20,000 bases of DNA from an uncultured virus (IMG/VR IMGVR_UViG_3300044640_001367) (taxonomy: Duplodnaviria > Heunggongvirae > Uroviricota > Caudoviricetes). Within the stretch, counting starts at the first letter, position 1. The number at the start of each line of letters is the position of its first letter. Below the pieces are notes generated by a model. It saw nothing but the letters and a program-made list of their open reading frames with translations. It had not been told where the DNA came from and made no database searches. The stretch spans positions 51,998 to 71,997 of IMG/VR virus record IMGVR_UViG_3300044640_001367; one strand, 5' to 3'. Positions 3,558-11,079 of this stretch are shown piece after piece. The position numbers were made by a program, and so were the translations under genes.

Positions 3558-3610
3558 AATTAGTTTGCGAGTAAAAACCTAACAGTAATTAAATAAAGAA
3601 AGATACAAAT

Positions 3611-5449
3611 ATGAGTATGGATATTAAAAGTCTATTGACAAACAATATGAATCCACAGGCCAAATTAATGGCAGAAACACGTGGACTACAAGGCAAATGG
3701 GAAAAGACAGGCCTCCTAGAAGGTTGCAAAGGTGTTGAAAAAGCACATATGTCAATCCTATTAGAAAATCAAGCAAAACAATTGCTTGACGAAGCAACCA
3801 CAACTGGTACATCTACCAGTTCAGAACAATGGGCTGGCGTAGCTCTTCCATTGGTTCGTCGTGTGTTTGCTGAAATCGCTGCGAAGGAATTCGTAAGCGT
3901 TCAACCAATGAATCTACCATCTGGTCTAATCTTCTATCTAGACTTCAAGTATGGTACTAACGCTCCTGGTTCAGATTTGCGCAACTTGAACAACGGTAGT
4001 TCTGTAACTACCCGCGCCGGTAAGCAATTGAACGACAGTTTGTTTGGTGGTACAGGCAAGAAATTGGGTTCAACTGATAGCGCAGTACGTGGTTTATACG
4101 GCCAAGGTGCTTTTGCATATTCAGTTCGTCCAGTAAGTAGTTCCGCTATTACAATCACGTATTCATCAGGAGCAACCAATAACGGTGGTACAATTCAAAC
4201 CGCTTCTTGGAATGACGTACAATTTGATGCTGAATTGAGTGGTTCCGTGGTAGCTAAGAAATTGTTTAAAGTAATCTTGAATCACGATGATAATAATACC
4301 CCTGTATCAAGTTACGGAAATCTATACAACGTTGACTTGAATGCAGTGCGTTCATTCAACTTGATCTCAGGTTCAGGTGCGACCAATCCAGGCGCACTCA
4401 TTAAAAACGGTGTGGTGTTGAACACTTACAGCAAAGCGGTCAATACTGGTAGTTTGAGCAATCCATTCTATCAAACTGTATACATCGTATCCGCTTCACA
4501 GAGTACATTCGCTGGCGCCGCCTCCGGTCCAAGACTTAAATTGATCTATAGTCTACAACCTACGGACAACCTACGTGGTGACTTTGAAGCTGGTAAGACA
4601 CCAGGTGAAGGTTCTGGTACAGCTGCTAACGTTGCTACTCAAAGCATCGACACTGATATCAGTATCCCAGAAGTTAACTTGGTACTAAACAGCGAACCAA
4701 TCGTTGCTAAGACCCGTAAACTAAAGGCAGTCTGGACCCCAGAATTAGCGCAAGACTTGAACGCATATCACTCTATTGATGCAGAAGCAGAATTGACTGC
4801 TCTGTTGAGTGAATACGTATCTATGGAAATCGATCTAGAAATCCTAGAAATGTTGAACGGTGCCGTTCAAGGTATAACTACCGAAGCTTGGTCCGCCCAA
4901 ATCGGTGTTGAATTCAGCAAGGGATTGAATGCAACTACTGGTGACGCAGTATTCACACGTAATGCAAATGCTTCTGCAAATCGTACAGCTTACGTTAAGA
5001 GCACTTGGTTCCAAACTCTTGGTAACAAGATTCAAAAGGTATCTAACACAATCCAAAAATTGACCCTCCGTGGTGGTGCTAACTTCTTGGTCGTAAGTCC
5101 AGACGTAGCAACCATCTTGGAATCAATTCCAGGATATGTAGTAAACACCGATGGTGACAGTGCTAAGTTCGCAATGGGCGTTGCACGTGTTGGTAGCTTC
5201 GCAAGTCGCTTCCAAGTTTACAAGAACCCATATATGACCGATAATATCGTATTGGTTGGTTTCCGTGGAAATAACTTCCTAGAAACAGGCGCAGTATATG
5301 CTCCTTATATCCCACTAATCCAAACTCCATTGGTCTATGATCCAGTGAACTTCACTCCACGTAGAGGTGTAATGACCCGCTACGCTAAGAAGGTCGTGCG
5401 CCCAGAGTTCTATGGAAAAGTTATTATCGGTGATCTCGATACCGTATAA
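3611..5449 (+). CDS. gp23: Major capsid protein, T4 gp23-like
   Basis: Motifs ILLENQ, LVRRVF, VQPMNLPSGLIFYL, AKTRKLKAVWTPELAQDLNAYHSIDAEAELTALLSEYVSMEIDLEI, YAPYIPL and FTPRRGVMTRYA are typical of the gp23 family. Confidence 0.97.
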   Translation: MSMDIKSLLTNNMNPQAKLMAETRGLQGKWEKTGLLEGCKGVEKAHMSILLENQAKQLLDEATTTGTSTSSEQWAGVALPLVRRVFAEIAAKEFVSVQPMNLPSGLIFYLDFKYGTNAPGSDLRNLNNGSSVTTRAGKQLNDSLFGGTGKKLGSTDSAVRGLYGQGAFAYSVRPVSSSAITITYSSGATNNGGTIQTASWNDVQFDAELSGSVVAKKLFKVILNHDDNNTPVSSYGNLYNVDLNAVRSFNLISGSGATNPGALIKNGVVLNTYSKAVNTGSLSNPFYQTVYIVSASQSTFAGAASGPRLKLIYSLQPTDNLRGDFEAGKTPGEGSGTAANVATQSIDTDISIPEVNLVLNSEPIVAKTRKLKAVWTPELAQDLNAYHSIDAEAELTALLSEYVSMEIDLEILEMLNGAVQGITTEAWSAQIGVEFSKGLNATTGDAVFTRNANASANRTAYVKSTWFQTLGNKIQKVSNTIQKLTLRGGANFLVVSPDVATILESIPGYVVNTDGDSAKFAMGVARVGSFASRFQVYKNPYMTDNIVLVGFRGNNFLETGAVYAPYIPLIQTPLVYDPVNFTPRRGVMTRYAKKVVRPEFYGKVIIGDLDTV

Positions 5450-5473: not shown

Positions 5474-5502
5474 AAAAACCCCAACGAAAGTTGGGGTTTT
5501 TT
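5474..5502. terminator. Bidirectional intrinsic terminator
   Basis: AAAAACCCCAAC-GAAA-GTTGGGGTTTTTT is a perfect stem with a GNRA loop and a T tract on both strands, between the convergent capsid and mom genes. Confidence 0.92.
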
Positions 5503-5508
5503 CTTGCA

Positions 5509-6282
5509 CTAATCGAAAAATTCGTTGGTATTTTCTACAACGATTTCTTGCACTTCTTCTTTGAACGAAGTATCTTTGGGATAAGGTAGAACTTTATGTT
5601 TAAGAGATTTAACCAGTTTCTTATTTTCTATCTTGTTGCTTATAAACTTGATATAACGATGTTTACCGCTTTCACGTTTGCGCCAAAATGTTCTACCAAT
5701 ACGTTCTTTTAGTTTATCTACACTGTGTGTTTTCCAACGTGCATATACACTTCTACTATGTATCCAATCATATTCAGTGGGGCCAATTAAACTAACACTA
5801 TAGTTAGGCATCAGTGCAATATCCACATAGTTATCACCTTGATATACAAATCCAGTTGCTTGATATATTGTTCCAACGTGACCAGCTTCACTATCCGCGT
5901 AACTAAGAATACATTTTATTTGTGGATAATCTGTGTTTAATAATCTAAAACTTTCAGCTATACAATAGCTTTCTATATTTTTACCATAACCATCTGCAAT
6001 CCACAGTCGTGTTAATTCCAACACATTGTTATTAGTAAGTAGAGGACATATGCTGGTACTTGCATTTCTACCCACGGCATTTCCATATACTAATACACCT
6101 ATTAGGCGTTCGTTAAAACCACCAAAGAATGTGCTTTCAATATACTCTTTATAATAAACTCCATAAGCTACAGTACAAAGAGACCATTTGTGTGTATAAT
6201 GGTTTTTTTCAATAAGAGTTTTTGCAACATTCTTATTGATACTTTTGAGATAAAGCAATGAGGTATCACAATATTCGGACAT
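5509..6282 (-). CDS. mom: Mom-family (GNAT-fold) adenine-modification enzyme
   Basis: Motifs IEKNHYTH, LIGVLVYG, VLELTRLWI, KNIES, and ILSYADSEAGHVGTIYQATGFVYQG are characteristic of phage Mu Mom homologues. Confidence 0.85.
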   Translation of the reverse strand: MSEYCDTSLLYLKSINKNVAKTLIEKNHYTHKWSLCTVAYGVYYKEYIESTFFGGFNERLIGVLVYGNAVGRNASTSICPLLTNNNVLELTRLWIADGYGKNIESYCIAESFRLLNTDYPQIKCILSYADSEAGHVGTIYQATGFVYQGDNYVDIALMPNYSVSLIGPTEYDWIHSRSVYARWKTHSVDKLKERIGRTFWRKRESGKHRYIKFISNKIENKKLVKSLKHKVLPYPKDTSFKEEVQEIVVENTNEFFD

Positions 6283-6288
6283 TCCCCC

Positions 6289-6316
6289 ATTATAAACCTA
6301 TAATAAAGAATGTCAA
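6289..6316 (-). promoter_or_regulatory. Consensus sigma70-type promoter for mom
   Basis: Minus strand reads TTGACA (6316-6311), 16-nt spacer, TATAAT (6294-6289), GGGGGA, ATG (6282). Confidence 0.8.
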
Positions 6317-6319
6317 CAT

Positions 6320-6532
6320 TTATATTAAATAAAACAAGCCTTTTGAATTATAAACTACAATTCTGATCTTGGTATCGTTATCTTTAATGATACCGAGTTT
6401 ATCTGAAATTTGAAATGGACCTGGATGATTACTTGTACGTACACCCATTACTTTATCTTTTATTTTATATACATCCAAATCTGTATTAACAACACTTGCG
6501 TGATATTGTCTTCCCAAAGGTATCATTTTCAT
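6320..6532 (-). CDS. Small hypothetical protein (70 aa)
   Basis: Its ATG overlaps the cyclase TGA (ATGA overlap, 6529-6532), suggesting translational coupling. It fills the gap exactly up to the mom promoter. Confidence 0.65.
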   Translation of the reverse strand: MKMIPLGRQYHASVVNTDLDVYKIKDKVMGVRTSNHPGPFQISDKLGIIKDNDTKIRIVVYNSKGLFYLI

Positions 6533-8307
6533 AATGGTTTATTTGTTGTTGGTTCTGCTTTTTTTACTCTACTTGATGGAAATTCTTTGTTACCAAACTC
6601 GGTACCGTGTAAACTGTACAAATGCATTATTACACCGTGTTTTACAATTACATCCCCCAAATCATTTACCAAAACGTATGCTGGTCTATCATATTTCAAC
6701 ATTACAGCTGAACTAACTAATAAATGATTTGTTTCACCCGCATCCATTACTCTTTGAGCATAATTGATTCCATCACCGCTTATATTAAGATTTCCATTGA
6801 TATCTTCCATTGGAATTACAGGTCCACAGTGTACACCCATTCTCATTTGTAAGTCGGGTCTATCTTTTACTGCTTTAGCTATAGCAACGGCACAATTCAT
6901 TGCATCTTCTAGATACGTGAAAAATCCCATTACCATACCATCTCCGGTGGGTAATATAATCAACTTTTCAAGAGCATTAGCTGTTTTATATTGCATTGTA
7001 GATTTAACTAGTGTACCCAAGTCTTTACAAGCCTTCTTTTGTTCATCTGTGGTTTTTTTACTGTAAGCCACAATATCCATAAAGAATATGAAACCTTCTT
7101 GTTCAGTATCTAATTGTAATCGTCCTGATTTGACTTCCACGTCGATCTTGTCAACTTTACGAACTATTTGTTTAACTGGTTTTGGTACTTCAACCTTTGG
7201 TTGTTCTTCTTTCTTTTCTACAACCGGCATATTCTTTAATTTTAAAAAGTCTTTCCAGTTAATCTTTTTTGTTGGTGCATCTTTCTTTTTTGGTTCTTTT
7301 GCAGTCTGTTCTGCTTCTAGTTTCTTTATTGCTTCTTCTTCACGATTGCGTTTTTCAATGAATAACGCAATTTGTTTCTTAACTTCATCTGTAATATAAA
7401 TGTTTACATCTTTACCATTACCACCCGTATCGTGTTTCTTCTTTCTTAAAGCACCTTTGGCTTGTAAATAACTTTGCATTTCTACATTGCCTGTCTTGAA
7501 TGCAATGTCTAACGGAGCAATTTCTCCCTTAAAATCTGCACCATTAACATTTGCACCCAAATGTACCAAAAACTCCGTCATATCAACATCGTTAGCATTA
7601 ACGGCGTAATGTAATGGCATCCATCCATTCTTTTCATCTCTACCATTAATTTTACCGTCTTTATCAAAAAATGACTGTACACCTTCAAAATCACCGGTTT
7701 CAGCACAAAAATGAATATTAACACCACCAGCAGATTTAGCGCCATTTTTATTTAACAACTTAACAATTTCACCTCTATTAACATTGGATAACACATCTAT
7801 TGGATTGTTTTTACCTAAGAAATCTTTCTTGTTGACATCAGCACCTTTAACAATTAAATATTCAACCAAATGTTTTTGTCCATAATTAACCGCATAGTGT
7901 AGTGCTGTCCAACCTTTACCAGCGTCAACTTCATTGATATCTTGTTTTTTACTCAACATTTCTTCAATAGAAACAATATCACCATTCTTAGCAGCCAAAT
8001 GAAAACTGCTACCACTACTATATTTTGCACCTCGACCTTGCAATAATTCTGAAATGTGTTTAAACCCTTTTTGTTCAGATATATCTAATGCAGTATTTTT
8101 GCTTGTCCAATCTTTTACATTTACATCGGCGCCACGATTTAATAACAATTTGACTATTTCTATTTGATTTTCTTCTACTGCAACAACCAATGGTGGATTG
8201 CCGGTATCGTCATCTCTCTGATTAACGTCTATTTTTTCTTTTTCGATGCAATTGTATACGTTATCATACAACCCTCGTTTAATGTGGGTAAAAATATTGA
8301 TTGCCAT
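6529..8307 (-). CDS. Ankyrin-repeat protein fused to a class III (adenylate/guanylate-type) nucleotide cyclase domain
   Basis: N-terminal ~290 aa hold about 9 ankyrin repeats (GWTALHYAVNYG, GWMPLHYAVNAN, GADVN), followed by a K/E/P linker. The C-terminal domain has FMDIVAYS, TGDG, MRMGVHCGPV, GDGINYAQRVMD and LLVS. Confidence 0.9.
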   Translation of the reverse strand: MAINIFTHIKRGLYDNVYNCIEKEKIDVNQRDDDTGNPPLVVAVEENQIEIVKLLLNRGADVNVKDWTSKNTALDISEQKGFKHISELLQGRGAKYSSGSSFHLAAKNGDIVSIEEMLSKKQDINEVDAGKGWTALHYAVNYGQKHLVEYLIVKGADVNKKDFLGKNNPIDVLSNVNRGEIVKLLNKNGAKSAGGVNIHFCAETGDFEGVQSFFDKDGKINGRDEKNGWMPLHYAVNANDVDMTEFLVHLGANVNGADFKGEIAPLDIAFKTGNVEMQSYLQAKGALRKKKHDTGGNGKDVNIYITDEVKKQIALFIEKRNREEEAIKKLEAEQTAKEPKKKDAPTKKINWKDFLKLKNMPVVEKKEEQPKVEVPKPVKQIVRKVDKIDVEVKSGRLQLDTEQEGFIFFMDIVAYSKKTTDEQKKACKDLGTLVKSTMQYKTANALEKLIILPTGDGMVMGFFTYLEDAMNCAVAIAKAVKDRPDLQMRMGVHCGPVIPMEDINGNLNISGDGINYAQRVMDAGETNHLLVSSAVMLKYDRPAYVLVNDLGDVIVKHGVIMHLYSLHGTEFGNKEFPSSRVKKAEPTTNKPL

Positions 8308-8314
8308 AAGTAAA

Positions 8315-8704
8315 TTAGTCTTGTTTGTTTTCTTTTTTGAAACGAGCCAAATCCAACTGAGGTAGTGGTTTTTCTATATTTAGACCGGCCAATCTTTCAT
8401 TTTGAATAACTAATTTACTGCCACCTACAACCTTACCATCTACTACATCATATATAAAGAATACCGTTTTGGTTAAACCTACACGTACAATTCTTCCTGG
8501 TTTACCATCAACATATACAACGTCATCTTCTTTATAATCGGATCCAATAAACATAAAAAGCGCAGCTGCTAACTTTTCAATGCTTGATTTGAATATTAGA
8601 ATTACTAAACCGGCTAAGAACATCCAGACATATTTGCCTGTCATATCTTGCGCTGTTGATTCTAATACTTTTTCTGAAATTACTTGTACAGTATTTGTGT
8701 CCAT
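8315..8704 (-). CDS. Small membrane protein with MscS-like TM helix plus beta domain
   Basis: Hydrophobic YVWMFLAGLVILIF, then SIEKLAAALFMFIGSDYKEDDVVYVDGKPGRIVRVGLTKT, resembling the MscS TM3/middle beta domain (F..GD.I.I.G..G.V..I....T). Confidence 0.65.
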   Translation of the reverse strand: MDTNTVQVISEKVLESTAQDMTGKYVWMFLAGLVILIFKSSIEKLAAALFMFIGSDYKEDDVVYVDGKPGRIVRVGLTKTVFFIYDVVDGKVVGGSKLVIQNERLAGLNIEKPLPQLDLARFKKENKQD

Positions 8705-8754
8705 ATTTGTTTTTGGTTATTTAAAACGAGTTTAACACCTAAAACAATTATATA

Positions 8755-8762
8755 ATAAATAT
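8755..8762 (-). promoter_or_regulatory. ATATTTAT motif, candidate late promoter element
   Basis: Intergenic, 50 nt upstream of the minus-strand ATG at 8704. Confidence 0.45.
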
Positions 8763-8773
8763 ATTTAATTATC

Positions 8774-9739
8774 TCACTTCGTCCACTTTTGTTCTTTCAA
8801 GATATCATCAATCAAATCTTTTTCAGAGTTGTCCATTTCTTTGTCAAATCTCTTTAACACTTCGGTCAATGGATATACTCTGTCAGGAGATTCTTTTTGC
8901 TTTTCTTTGAGTTCTTGAATTACATCAACTATCTTAGTAAGTGGGGACTTATATTCATCAACTTTGTCTTTTGAAGCAAAGTTAGATATTTCAAATGCAT
9001 GTGGAGTTAATACTTTTACCAAACTTAATAGTCCGGATCCGATCATATTGAATATACTAAATACTGCACCAGCTGCTGGATGTACTGTTGCTAATATTCT
9101 AAGTATAACGAATACTACAACAAATATGATAATTGCGGTTAAAGCACTAATAAAGAACTTTTTTAAACCCCAAAATACAGCATTTAATCCAAACATACCA
9201 CTCATTGTATCAAGTGTAGCCTTGCTTTGATCTGCTTCTTTTGCAATTTCTTTTGCTTTATCAGTCATTTGCCAAAGTTCATCATCATACTTTTCTTTTA
9301 AAGCAGACTTTTCTTTTTGTAATTTGTTTATGATTTCGTCCCGTTGTGATAATAATTGATCACCTTTTTTTCGTTCTTCAGCTACTTGAGAATTAAGCAG
9401 ATCAACTGTAGCTTTAATTCTTTTAATTTCATCTATGTGTGGAGAACCAACGATAGAAATTACTCGTTCATTCAAAGATTTAGCTGTTTCTACTTGTATA
9501 GGCGCATTAGTTACTTGACTTAACGAATGTTGAATACCAATTGATAAAGAAGAAGTTTGTACTATTTTACCTTTTTCTACTTTTTCCAATTCTACCATTG
9601 TATTGTCTACTTTGGCTTCTTGTTTTGCAACGGCATCTTGTGCCACACTAACTTGCTTTGCTGATTTAACCTCTGATGAAATACATCCAGTTAATATCAA
9701 AATTACAATAGTATAAAACAGTTGCTTTTTAAAGTTCAT
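8774..9739 (-). CDS. Lipoprotein with coiled coil and C-terminal transmembrane segment(s); candidate unimolecular spanin
   Basis: Signal MNFKKQLFYTIVILILTG-C (lipobox), about 160 aa of helical/coiled-coil sequence, hydrophobic FFISALTAIIIFVVVFVILRIL, and a charged C-terminal domain. Confidence 0.7.
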   Translation of the reverse strand: MNFKKQLFYTIVILILTGCISSEVKSAKQVSVAQDAVAKQEAKVDNTMVELEKVEKGKIVQTSSLSIGIQHSLSQVTNAPIQVETAKSLNERVISIVGSPHIDEIKRIKATVDLLNSQVAEERKKGDQLLSQRDEIINKLQKEKSALKEKYDDELWQMTDKAKEIAKEADQSKATLDTMSGMFGLNAVFWGLKKFFISALTAIIIFVVVFVILRILATVHPAAGAVFSIFNMIGSGLLSLVKVLTPHAFEISNFASKDKVDEYKSPLTKIVDVIQELKEKQKESPDRVYPLTEVLKRFDKEMDNSEKDLIDDILKEQKWTK

Positions 9740-9744
9740 ATAAT

Positions 9745-9752
9745 ATAAATAT
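9745..9752 (-). promoter_or_regulatory. ATATTTAT motif, candidate late promoter element
   Basis: 5 nt upstream of the minus-strand ATG at 9739. Confidence 0.6.
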
Positions 9753-9780: not shown

Positions 9781-9849
9781 ACTCAAAGAAAAGTATAACC
9801 GTGTAATAAAAGGTAACGGCAGTTGAAAAGTAAGAATAACAAAACACAT

Positions 9850-11079
9850 ATGAAATTAATCGATTTGCTAACCGAAGTTAAAATGTATGAAAGTCTAGGA
9901 TTACCAGCATCGGCTGTACAGTCATTAGATTCATTTGTTGCACAAGAATTAGACGAAGCTGATATGTTAGGCGCTGGCACCACAGAATTGCCATCCGATG
10001 AATTACAAGGATATTTAGACAGATCGGCCGGTCAACCTGCAGTTTATAAGAAAACTGGATTGCCTAAATTGGATAAAAAAGGTAAACAAAAGTATACTAC
10101 TACAAAAGATCCAACTGATAAATTCAAGTATCCATATGTACATCCAAAGCTTGCCAGAGAGATACAAATTGTAGATCCAAGTGGCCGTAGGTTTGATTTA
10201 AACAAACTAAAAACCCATATCACCACACGTCCTGATAAGATTTTAAAACAAAATGAAAAAATTTCACACAGTGGCGGTGAAAGTACTCAGTTTTATAATA
10301 TAGGATTGCCAGCTTTACAAGGACTTGGTTATGACGAAAAGAATCAAAAATTTGTTATCATAAATACGTGTCCAGGCGCAGGTGCATGCAAAGTTTATTG
10401 TTATGCTAAAAAAGGCGGTTATGTACAATATGTACCAGTTAACACATCGCAAACAAGACAACTTAACTTTTTGTTGAACGATCCGGATGGTTATAAAAAT
10501 ATGTTATCAAACGAAATTCGTGCAGCAGTTGAAAAAAATTCAAAGAAAAATGTAAAAACTGTGATTAGATGGCATGATTCAGGCGATTTCTTTAGTCCTG
10601 ATTATGTAAACCTAGCATATAGTGTTGCAAAAACATTTCCCAACGTAGACTTTTATGCTTATACTAAAATGGCAGATGTGGCTAAAGGTGATAAACCAGT
10701 CAATTTCAAGATGAATTTTAGTGCGGGTGCAAAACCTGATCAAGAAAAACAAGTCGATTTTAAAACAACTAAACATTCAACTGTAGTACCAAAGCAAATG
10801 TTTGCTGATTTAGTTGATAGAGAAGAAGTACCAGATCCAGATAAGCCAAATAAAACAATTAAAAAGTTGGTTTATAAATCCCCATCCGCTATTGATATTT
10901 TAAAGAAAAAGTTAGCATTAAAGTATAATGTTTCTGAAGACAGTGTCATTACCTACGATGAAATGATGAAAATTCCTGTGGGAGATAAACCAAAGTGGAA
11001 TGTTATAGTTAAACCAGGTGACGGCGACGATAGTGCAAATAGAGCAGATGTAGTGGGTACTTGGTTATTAATCCACTAA
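9850..11079 (+). CDS. Gp88-like protein (Cys-cluster, radical-SAM-like) with N-terminal extension
   Basis: TCPGAGACKVYCYAKKG (CX5CX3C), IRWHDSGDFFS and FYAYTK resemble the phage GP88 family. ATG 9850 (MKLIDLLTE), after A-rich AAAACACAT, is preferred over TTG 9823. Confidence 0.75.
   Translation: MKLIDLLTEVKMYESLGLPASAVQSLDSFVAQELDEADMLGAGTTELPSDELQGYLDRSAGQPAVYKKTGLPKLDKKGKQKYTTTKDPTDKFKYPYVHPKLAREIQIVDPSGRRFDLNKLKTHITTRPDKILKQNEKISHSGGESTQFYNIGLPALQGLGYDEKNQKFVIINTCPGAGACKVYCYAKKGGYVQYVPVNTSQTRQLNFLLNDPDGYKNMLSNEIRAAVEKNSKKNVKTVIRWHDSGDFFSPDYVNLAYSVAKTFPNVDFYAYTKMADVAKGDKPVNFKMNFSAGAKPDQEKQVDFKTTKHSTVVPKQMFADLVDREEVPDPDKPNKTIKKLVYKSPSAIDILKKKLALKYNVSEDSVITYDEMMKIPVGDKPKWNVIVKPGDGDDSANRADVVGTWLLIH

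Follow-up and report, generated by a model that had tools for sequence, protein, structure and literature searches.

Pycsar systems consist of the class III cyclase PycC and an effector, PycTM or PycTIR, carrying a domain that binds cyclic nucleotide monophosphates (cNMPs). Here we describe a gene pair in a 20,000-nt stretch of DNA from an uncultured phage (IMG/VR record IMGVR_UViG_3300044640_001367, positions 51,998 to 71,997; hereafter the window), in which a class III nucleotidyl cyclase with ankyrin repeats is encoded next to a much reduced relative of the channel MscS, the mini-MscS. Three further genes of the same strand adjoin the pair, coding for an envelope lipoprotein (LP), a protein of 70 aa and a Mom-family DNA modification protein. 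A cut-down MscS fold that works as a heptameric channel is known from Trypanosoma cruzi (TcMscS; available text of PMC12334622), and fusions of MscS with a cNMP-binding domain form the bCNG channels, whose physiological roles are not understood according to the available part of a recent review (PMC13591265). An aquatic-phage cyclase within an envelope-related cluster has also been described, namely the adenylate cyclase of a pelagiphage beside genes for curli and the type VIII secretion system (T8SS; available text of PMC9599517).

The five minus-strand genes are three units and not one circuit: LP, the mini-MscS gene with the ankyrin-cyclase gene (and optionally the 70-aa gene), and Mom. The pair in the middle is a real, conserved phage gene pair that is unpublished by our searches. 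Literature searches found neither a phage MscS nor a phage ankyrin-cyclase, and none of the cultured phages in INPHARED carries either gene. The main text of a huge-phage envelope preprint (bioRxiv 10.64898/2026.10.24.761521), as far as available, contains no MscS, cyclase or ankyrin; its supplements could list them.

The two proteins and the linkage of their genes

The ankyrin-cyclase consists of ankyrin repeats at about residues 10-290 (Ank_2, E 5.7e-34), a charged linker and a cyclase domain at about residues 400-580, which exceeds the cut-off of Guanylate_cyc PF00211 (23.4 versus 21.9 bits). Its best sequence matches in the PDB are a Ruegeria protein (3mr7, E 2.4e-4), M. tuberculosis Rv1900c/LipJ (1ybt, 4.1e-3) and Ma1120 (5o5k, 6.3e-3), and every PDB match down to E 0.1 is a cyclase. 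In NCBIfam, Legionella Ank effectors and MzaA are matched by the ankyrin part only, far below cut-off. In 25 aligned homologs, picked from 120 listed, D411, D456, R489, N515, R519 and K556 are invariant. We take these to be the two metal-binding aspartates (D411, D456), the transition-state residues (N515, R519) and the phosphate-binding residues (R489, K556), and judged by its sequence the protein is a class III cyclase with intact catalytic residues. L452 and N508 are likewise invariant (25 of 25). These presumably are the base-selecting positions, at which canonical adenylyl cyclases have a lysine together with Asp or Thr; as this adenine-selecting pair is absent and replaced by Leu and Asn, the product of the cyclase cannot be called.

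The mini-MscS matches the MS_channel_2nd profile weakly (E 0.044, below cut-off). Its AlphaFold model (pLDDT 82.5) consists of one helix (residues 3-53) followed by strands (residues 62-101). The best Foldseek matches of this model all belong to the MscS family, and VIA gave Z scores of 9.9 for Flycatcher1, 7.7 for H. pylori MscS and 7.5 for T. cruzi MscS. With the two fold programs agreeing, the modelled protein can be regarded as a true MscS derivative; one homolog (L424) lies above the PF00924 cut-off (31 versus 20.2 bits), and the relatives comprise 239 clusters. It is not a canonical MscS. The pore helix (equivalent to TM3a/b) and the MscS beta-domain are kept, the TM1/TM2 paddle and the C-terminal alpha/beta cage are missing, and domain profiles found no cNMP-binding domain in it. 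The protein is thereby a natural 129-aa test of the smallest workable MscS.

The sequence-only reading had proposed a circuit of sensor, cyclase and membrane effector. A comparison of gene neighbourhoods supports a link between cyclase and membrane protein, restricted to the mini-MscS and the ankyrin-cyclase; LP, the 70-aa gene and Mom proved separable. Close relatives mostly keep the five-gene order. For a wider comparison 185 loci were anchored on LP, 24 with too little downstream DNA were dropped, and the remaining 161, sorted by LP identity (97%) and by state, formed 33 groups. Neither gene is present in 18 groups and both are present in 14; one group has the mini-MscS with an HD gene, and the cyclase alone was not encountered. 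A tree of LP requires no fewer than nine changes of state for the mini-MscS and no fewer than eight for the cyclase, and independent pairs on this tree were concordant in five cases, opposite in none and tied in one. In L079, whose LP is 96% identical, LP runs directly into Mom, exactly the mini-MscS, cyclase and 70-aa genes being missing.

The pairwise identities of mini-MscS and cyclase are correlated (Spearman 0.72) more closely than those of LP with the mini-MscS (0.33) or with the cyclase (0.39), which argues for a shared history of the pair; the values come from 21 chosen representative contigs, and the pairs are not independent. The survey of whole records covered the 28 searchable ones among 50 chosen, mostly fragments. 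Each of the eight with a PF00211 match has the mini-MscS, 13 that have only LP possess neither gene, and one ends inside the ankyrins. Taken together, co-gain and co-loss of the mini-MscS and ankyrin-cyclase genes as a pair are supported.

The association extends to a distant ankyrin-cyclase lineage, of whose 80 loci 17 contain the mini-MscS (13 of the 30 of at least 10 kb) and none LP. In L598 the mini-MscS lies 8 nt upstream of the cyclase, a tandem at 39% (mini-MscS) and 34% (cyclase) identity that exists without LP. After loose dereplication the association is seen in 4 of 11 groups (p 0.009-0.023 against random placement, with an assumed genome size). Upstream of the ankyrin-cyclase of this lineage, at a distance of 1-2 kb, two adjacent and divergent mini-MscS paralogs are found in L343 (5597-6416), L579 (7779-8601), L578, L580, L581, L626 and L645.

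A second cyclase unit, unrelated to the ankyrin-cyclase, comprises a TorF-like beta-barrel, a membrane adenylyl cyclase with the canonical K/T and an HD protein (L058:6609-9472, L125:7335-10195, L204:8384-11246, L186:8394-11267). Where the ankyrin-cyclase is absent, the mini-MscS stands at the head of this unit, as seen in 8 of 12 loci; the remaining four are cut off upstream. This unit fills the slot behind the mini-MscS with or without the ankyrin-cyclase, and both cyclases are present in G001. The dependence is one-way: phage cyclases tend to accompany the mini-MscS, not the reverse.

Layout of the locus and the separable genes

The window forms the terminal part of a 72-kb fragment, 27% complete, from a large T4-like aquatic phage; complete records among the relatives have 175-296 kb. 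The closest capsids of cultured phages are about 50% identical, and these phages infect unrelated hosts. According to Pfam and PHROG profile matches the plus strand carries genes for the prohead protease, the Gp23 capsid, neck and gp15-like proteins. The sequence-only reading had described five co-oriented minus-strand genes with a 7-nt gap between the mini-MscS and cyclase genes (8314-8308), an ATGA overlap between the cyclase and 70-aa genes (6532-6529) and the structural-gene motif ATATTTAT ahead of the first two genes, all of which we recovered (Table 1). The placement between the capsid and neck genes also holds, with the addition that a plus-strand gp88-like gene intervenes before the neck gene. 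Among close relatives this gp88-like gene is swapped for versions 56-100% identical. Comparison with three relatives shows purifying selection on each of the five genes (dN/dS 0.05-0.12; 0.21-0.29 for the 70-aa gene); the value for the ankyrin-cyclase is about 0.06 at about 90% conservation.

Table 1. Features of the five-gene locus in window coordinates
Feature	Position	Strand	Basis or remark
Envelope lipoprotein LP, 321 aa	8774..9739	-	lipobox ILTG/C19
Mini-MscS, 129 aa	8315..8704	-	structure model and fold search
Class III nucleotidyl cyclase with ankyrin repeats, 592 aa	6529..8307	-	domain profiles, PDB sequence matches
70-aa open reading frame	6320..6532	-	ATGA overlap with cyclase, translationally coupled
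Mom-family DNA modification protein, 257 aa	5509..6282	-	PF25680
ATATTTAT, probable promoter element of LP (late type)	9745..9752	-	motif enrichment
Second ATATTTAT motif, probable start of mini-MscS/cyclase/70-aa unit	8755..8762	-	motif enrichment
Sigma-70-type promoter for Mom	6289..6316	-	perfect TTGACA-16-TATAAT, 6 nt before Mom ATG
Hairpin terminator	5474..5501	.	between convergent capsid and Mom genes
gp88-like gene	9823..11079	+	PF17338; between cassette and neck gene, divergent from LP

Within the 72-kb contig 15 of the 25 copies of ATATTTAT lie at most 90 nt upstream of a start on the same strand, whereas 0.88 would be expected; the motif thus exceeds chance. Its typical distance of 11-13 nt from the ATG suggests a late promoter for leaderless messages. 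The TATTTAT core begins 12 nt ahead of the LP start codon and 57 nt ahead of that of the mini-MscS. It also precedes the mini-MscS in L018, L058, L326, L334 and L337; in L122, L125 and L132 it abuts LP, and no copy lies within 100 nt upstream of the mini-MscS. The Mom promoter is the sole 12/12 site among 19 lenient sigma-70 matches, and with Mom having a promoter of its own the row is not transcribed as a single unit. Contigs from RNA libraries of four studies cover parts of LP, mini-MscS and cyclase and report on presence only, not on strand, level or co-transcription.

The 70-aa gene accompanies the cyclase in L016/L017 and is an optional passenger of it: other genes occupy its place in L059, L058, L332 and L337. 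Its product has no Pfam or PHROG match and no usable Atlas match. In L332 (9795-10394) a gene for a PAS-domain protein directly follows the cyclase at this place, and a similar-sized gene is found in L337.

Mom is an ordinary member of its family (PF25680, E 1.8e-44, 152 bits versus a cut-off of 27.1; phrog_1384, E 1.2e-44) and a separate unit unrelated to the pair. It does not lie beside the pair in other lineages, being confined to the lineage with the capsid-neck slot, and probably is a separate early DNA-protection gene.

LP starts with a lipobox whose C19 is invariant in all 30 aligned homologs. A helical or coiled-coil region of about 160 aa follows, then a hydrophobic region at about residues 195-245, maybe of two segments (hydropathy peaks in the windows starting at 195 and 226), and a C-terminal tail of about 75 aa beyond this putative membrane anchor. 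The predicted structure is all-helical (mean pLDDT 64, pTM 0.24). LP matches no Pfam or PHROG family, a fold search of the PDB and BFVD with this low-confidence model as query gave no match, and the Atlas matches are unnamed viral clusters only. LP appears to have a u-spanin-like topology; it is separable from the other genes and often stands alone. It probably is a separate lysis or envelope-bridging protein and possibly spanin-like.

In other lineages a holin-like protein with three transmembrane segments (3-TM), matching phrog_2359 (E 1e-11), is encoded near LP. Such a gene was found in the LP slot of six of the 33 groups, none in this window, and in L122 it sits between the mini-MscS and the cyclase. 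A 206-aa membrane protein, the holin-like protein and an XhlA-like protein of 73-80 aa are encoded beside LP in L120 (6959-8165) and L122 (7355-8303), which suggests a lysis locus beside LP in these lineages. Just upstream of LP in L125 (5421-5942) lies a gene for a 2H-phosphoesterase with a weak match to the anti-CBASS protein Acb1 (E 0.001, below cut-off), and L132 has a similar gene.

The gene row is a mosaic slot holding the three units. In relatives the slot is flanked by endonuclease-like insertions (L079:1-408 and 3568-4311; L186:1992-2885 and 4135-4902); they look homing-endonuclease-like by eye and may drive the turnover of the slot. Elsewhere in the window, two further minus-strand genes (197 and 152 aa) form another pair behind a TATTTAT motif inside the head module (1275-2316), and an open frame of more than 1,870 aa, nearly all Gly-Ser-Thr triplet repeats, runs off the contig (14381-20000).

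Possible functions of the pair

Tentatively, we consider that the mini-MscS and the ankyrin-cyclase work together late in infection, producing a cyclic nucleotide and altering the permeability of the inner membrane, a reading to which we give somewhat less than an even chance. The two genes, often with the 70-aa passenger, would be expressed late and form a dispensable module placed behind an envelope lipoprotein that is itself widespread. A dimer of the cyclase would form a 3',5'-cyclic nucleotide; we slightly favour cAMP as the most likely product, cGMP or a pyrimidine nucleotide being possible. The ankyrins could connect the cyclase with a partner protein or an input. The mini-MscS may oligomerise through its ring of beta-domains, alone or mixed into MscS-type heptamers of the host, and both proteins together could shift inner-membrane permeability or turgor late in infection. 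A complex prediction for the two proteins (score 0.00, controls not folded) speaks neither for nor against an interaction.

The sequence-only reading had noted that no cNMP-binding domain is recognisable, and PF00027 is indeed absent from the five proteins. It was found neither in G000 nor in nine other phage records, four of them at least 90% complete, so that a self-contained phage circuit is not supported. If there is a receptor, the host probably encodes it. Full-length orthologs of the cyclase (68-71%) are present in three Verrucomicrobiota genomes of 61-65% GC with chromosomal-looking neighbours. They were found in 3 of 81 genomes of that family and in 1 of 301 sampled from the order. 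A quick tree nests the three bacterial cyclases among the phage ones; the AU test does not reject phage monophyly (p 0.142). Two other bacterial occurrences were set aside, probably being mis-binned or chimeric phage-type DNA: L219 (G012) resembles a mis-binned phage, being a contig of 35% GC with phage neighbours in a Gammaproteobacteria bin that also holds LP and mini-MscS; in L221 a 94% identical cyclase fragment sits at a Bacteroidetes contig end.

The sole match of the mini-MscS profile in the three Verrucomicrobiota (E about 1e-4) is an MscS of 511-519 aa with a C-terminal cNMP-binding domain. Of the three MscS genes in each genome, two lie in one open frame with PF00027, the bCNG architecture (two of these fusions are confirmed by Pfam, in L425 and L426, one is indicated by the mini-MscS-profile match and three were read from coordinates). 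The bCNG-type channels of these bacteria are a candidate target of the phage signal, the bacteria themselves being candidate hosts; as the host was deduced from one shared gene, this channel is a lead, not a result. In this more specific version of the proposal the signal would act on host bCNG-type MscS channels, and the mini subunit, having no cNMP-binding domain, would retune or replace them. That large aquatic phages hijack bCNG channels in this way, the ankyrin-cyclase supplying the ligand and the minimal MscS subunit entering or replacing the heptamer, we regard as unlikely. If true, turgor and the permeability of the membrane would come under phage control late in infection, and a phage-encoded MscS would provide a physiological handle on bCNG channels.

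A number of observations weigh against the module and its link to bCNG channels. The sign test on the LP-tree pairs is not significant (p 0.0625). Six distant mini-MscS records of the survey, one of them 95% complete, have no cyclase, and no cyclase lies within 6 kb in any of 32 distant mini-MscS loci. The two genes are about 13-15 kb apart in G001 and in the L016/L132 contig. The distant ankyrin-cyclase lineage has no mini-MscS in 63 of 80 loci (17 of the 30 of at least 10 kb), and where it is present its position and strand vary. Neighbouring genes, moreover, can be lost and moved jointly without a common function. Neither the mini-MscS nor LP was found in the three Verrucomicrobiota genomes that have the cyclase, and a 235-aa protein of the phage has no match there either, leaving the cyclase as the sole link to this candidate host. 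Finally, bCNG-like genes occur in 18 further genomes of the 301 in that order, and the mini-MscS shares no more than 21% identity with the bCNG channel.

Several of these points fit an alternative in which mini-MscS and cyclase are independent accessory genes moving as a block owing to one shared late promoter. The mini-MscS would then be an osmotic valve or a dominant-negative subunit, and the cyclase a source of cAMP that reprograms CRP-type transcription of the host. Since the promoter motif belongs to the mini-MscS gene, cargo inserted behind it would travel along, and PAS, barrel and holin genes also occupy the slot. The mini-MscS often occurs where there is no cyclase, the bacterial cyclases have no mini-MscS with them, and with 7-9 cNMP-binding matches in each candidate host there are many other possible targets. 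The association holds, however, at 34-39% identity and in varied positions and strands, and the eight cyclase-bearing records searched all have the mini-MscS, even 9-15 kb away. We give this alternative, the main rival of the module, a somewhat lower chance than the module.

The pair could also serve the control of lysis, with LP as a helical unimolecular spanin, the mini-MscS as a holin-like or anti-lysis protein and the cyclase timing lysis. An N-terminal lipobox with a membrane anchor towards the C-terminus is the topology of u-spanins (PMC6139136, available text), and the phrog_2359 holin-like gene occupies the slot of some LP groups (6 of 33). According to the same text, however, u-spanins of the T1 gp11 family are beta-rich in the periplasm, whereas LP is predicted to be all-helical and has an extra tail. 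Only two of five records have the phrog_2359-like holin, no endolysin was identified near LP, and the history of LP is decoupled from that of the pair (correlations 0.33 and 0.39). We regard such a lysis-control locus as improbable.

Still less probable is a phage-borne defence or exclusion system resembling Pycsar, in which the ankyrins of the cyclase sense a competing phage and the mini-MscS depolarises the cell. The patchiness of the cyclase and membrane protein pair among close relatives and the unusual base-selecting residues would suit such a system, but there is no match to a Pycsar profile, no cNMP-binding domain in the mini-MscS or the ten phage records, and conservation of about 90% with a dN/dS of about 0.06 does not speak for fast turnover. 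The full version of the sequence-only reading, in which the four upstream or all five genes form one self-contained circuit, is not supported and largely refuted, hardly any probability being left for it: most close relatives do keep the gene order, but 18 of 33 groups have LP without mini-MscS and cyclase, the 70-aa gene is replaced in several lineages, and Mom has its own promoter and is confined to one slot lineage.

Comparison with known systems

The mini-MscS and ankyrin-cyclase module proposed here resembles Pycsar in that a class III cyclase gene adjoins the gene of a membrane protein. It differs in being phage-encoded, in the ankyrin fusion and in having no cNMP-binding effector. PADLOC reported no Pycsar or PycC match on the cassette, only ankyrin-type matches; the cassette is not Pycsar. 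The pelagiphage cyclase has other neighbours, namely a histidine kinase, FecR and curli genes, and the word 'mechanosensitive' does not occur in the available text (PMC9599517). LP shares with the T1 unimolecular spanin gp11 the N-terminal lipoprotein signal and, as it appears, a membrane anchor towards the C-terminus, and in some lineages has a holin neighbour; its middle is predicted to be helical instead of beta-rich, it is longer, has an extra C-terminal tail and shows no sequence or fold match (PMC6139136, available text).

Like the soluble bacterial class III cyclases 3mr7, 1ybt and 5o5k, the phage enzyme retains the metal-binding Asp pair and the Asn/Arg residues. In contrast to them it has N-terminal ankyrins in place of a hydrolase or membrane domain, and Leu and Asn at the base-selecting sites. 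TcMscS (PDB 9bgq) is like the mini-MscS an MscS core without TM1 and without the alpha/beta cage (rmsd 3.3 over 86 residues, VIA Z 7.5). According to the available text (PMC12334622) it keeps TM2, TM3 and an N helix, whereas the phage protein has one clearly hydrophobic stretch and is 10-12% identical. The bCNG channels provide an established link between MscS and cyclic nucleotides (PMC13591265, available part). The phage mini-MscS is not a bCNG: it lacks a cNMP-binding domain, and a separate phage gene encodes the cyclase. The phage may tune membrane channels of its host, and if the module acts on bCNG channels, the question of their role becomes testable with two small genes.

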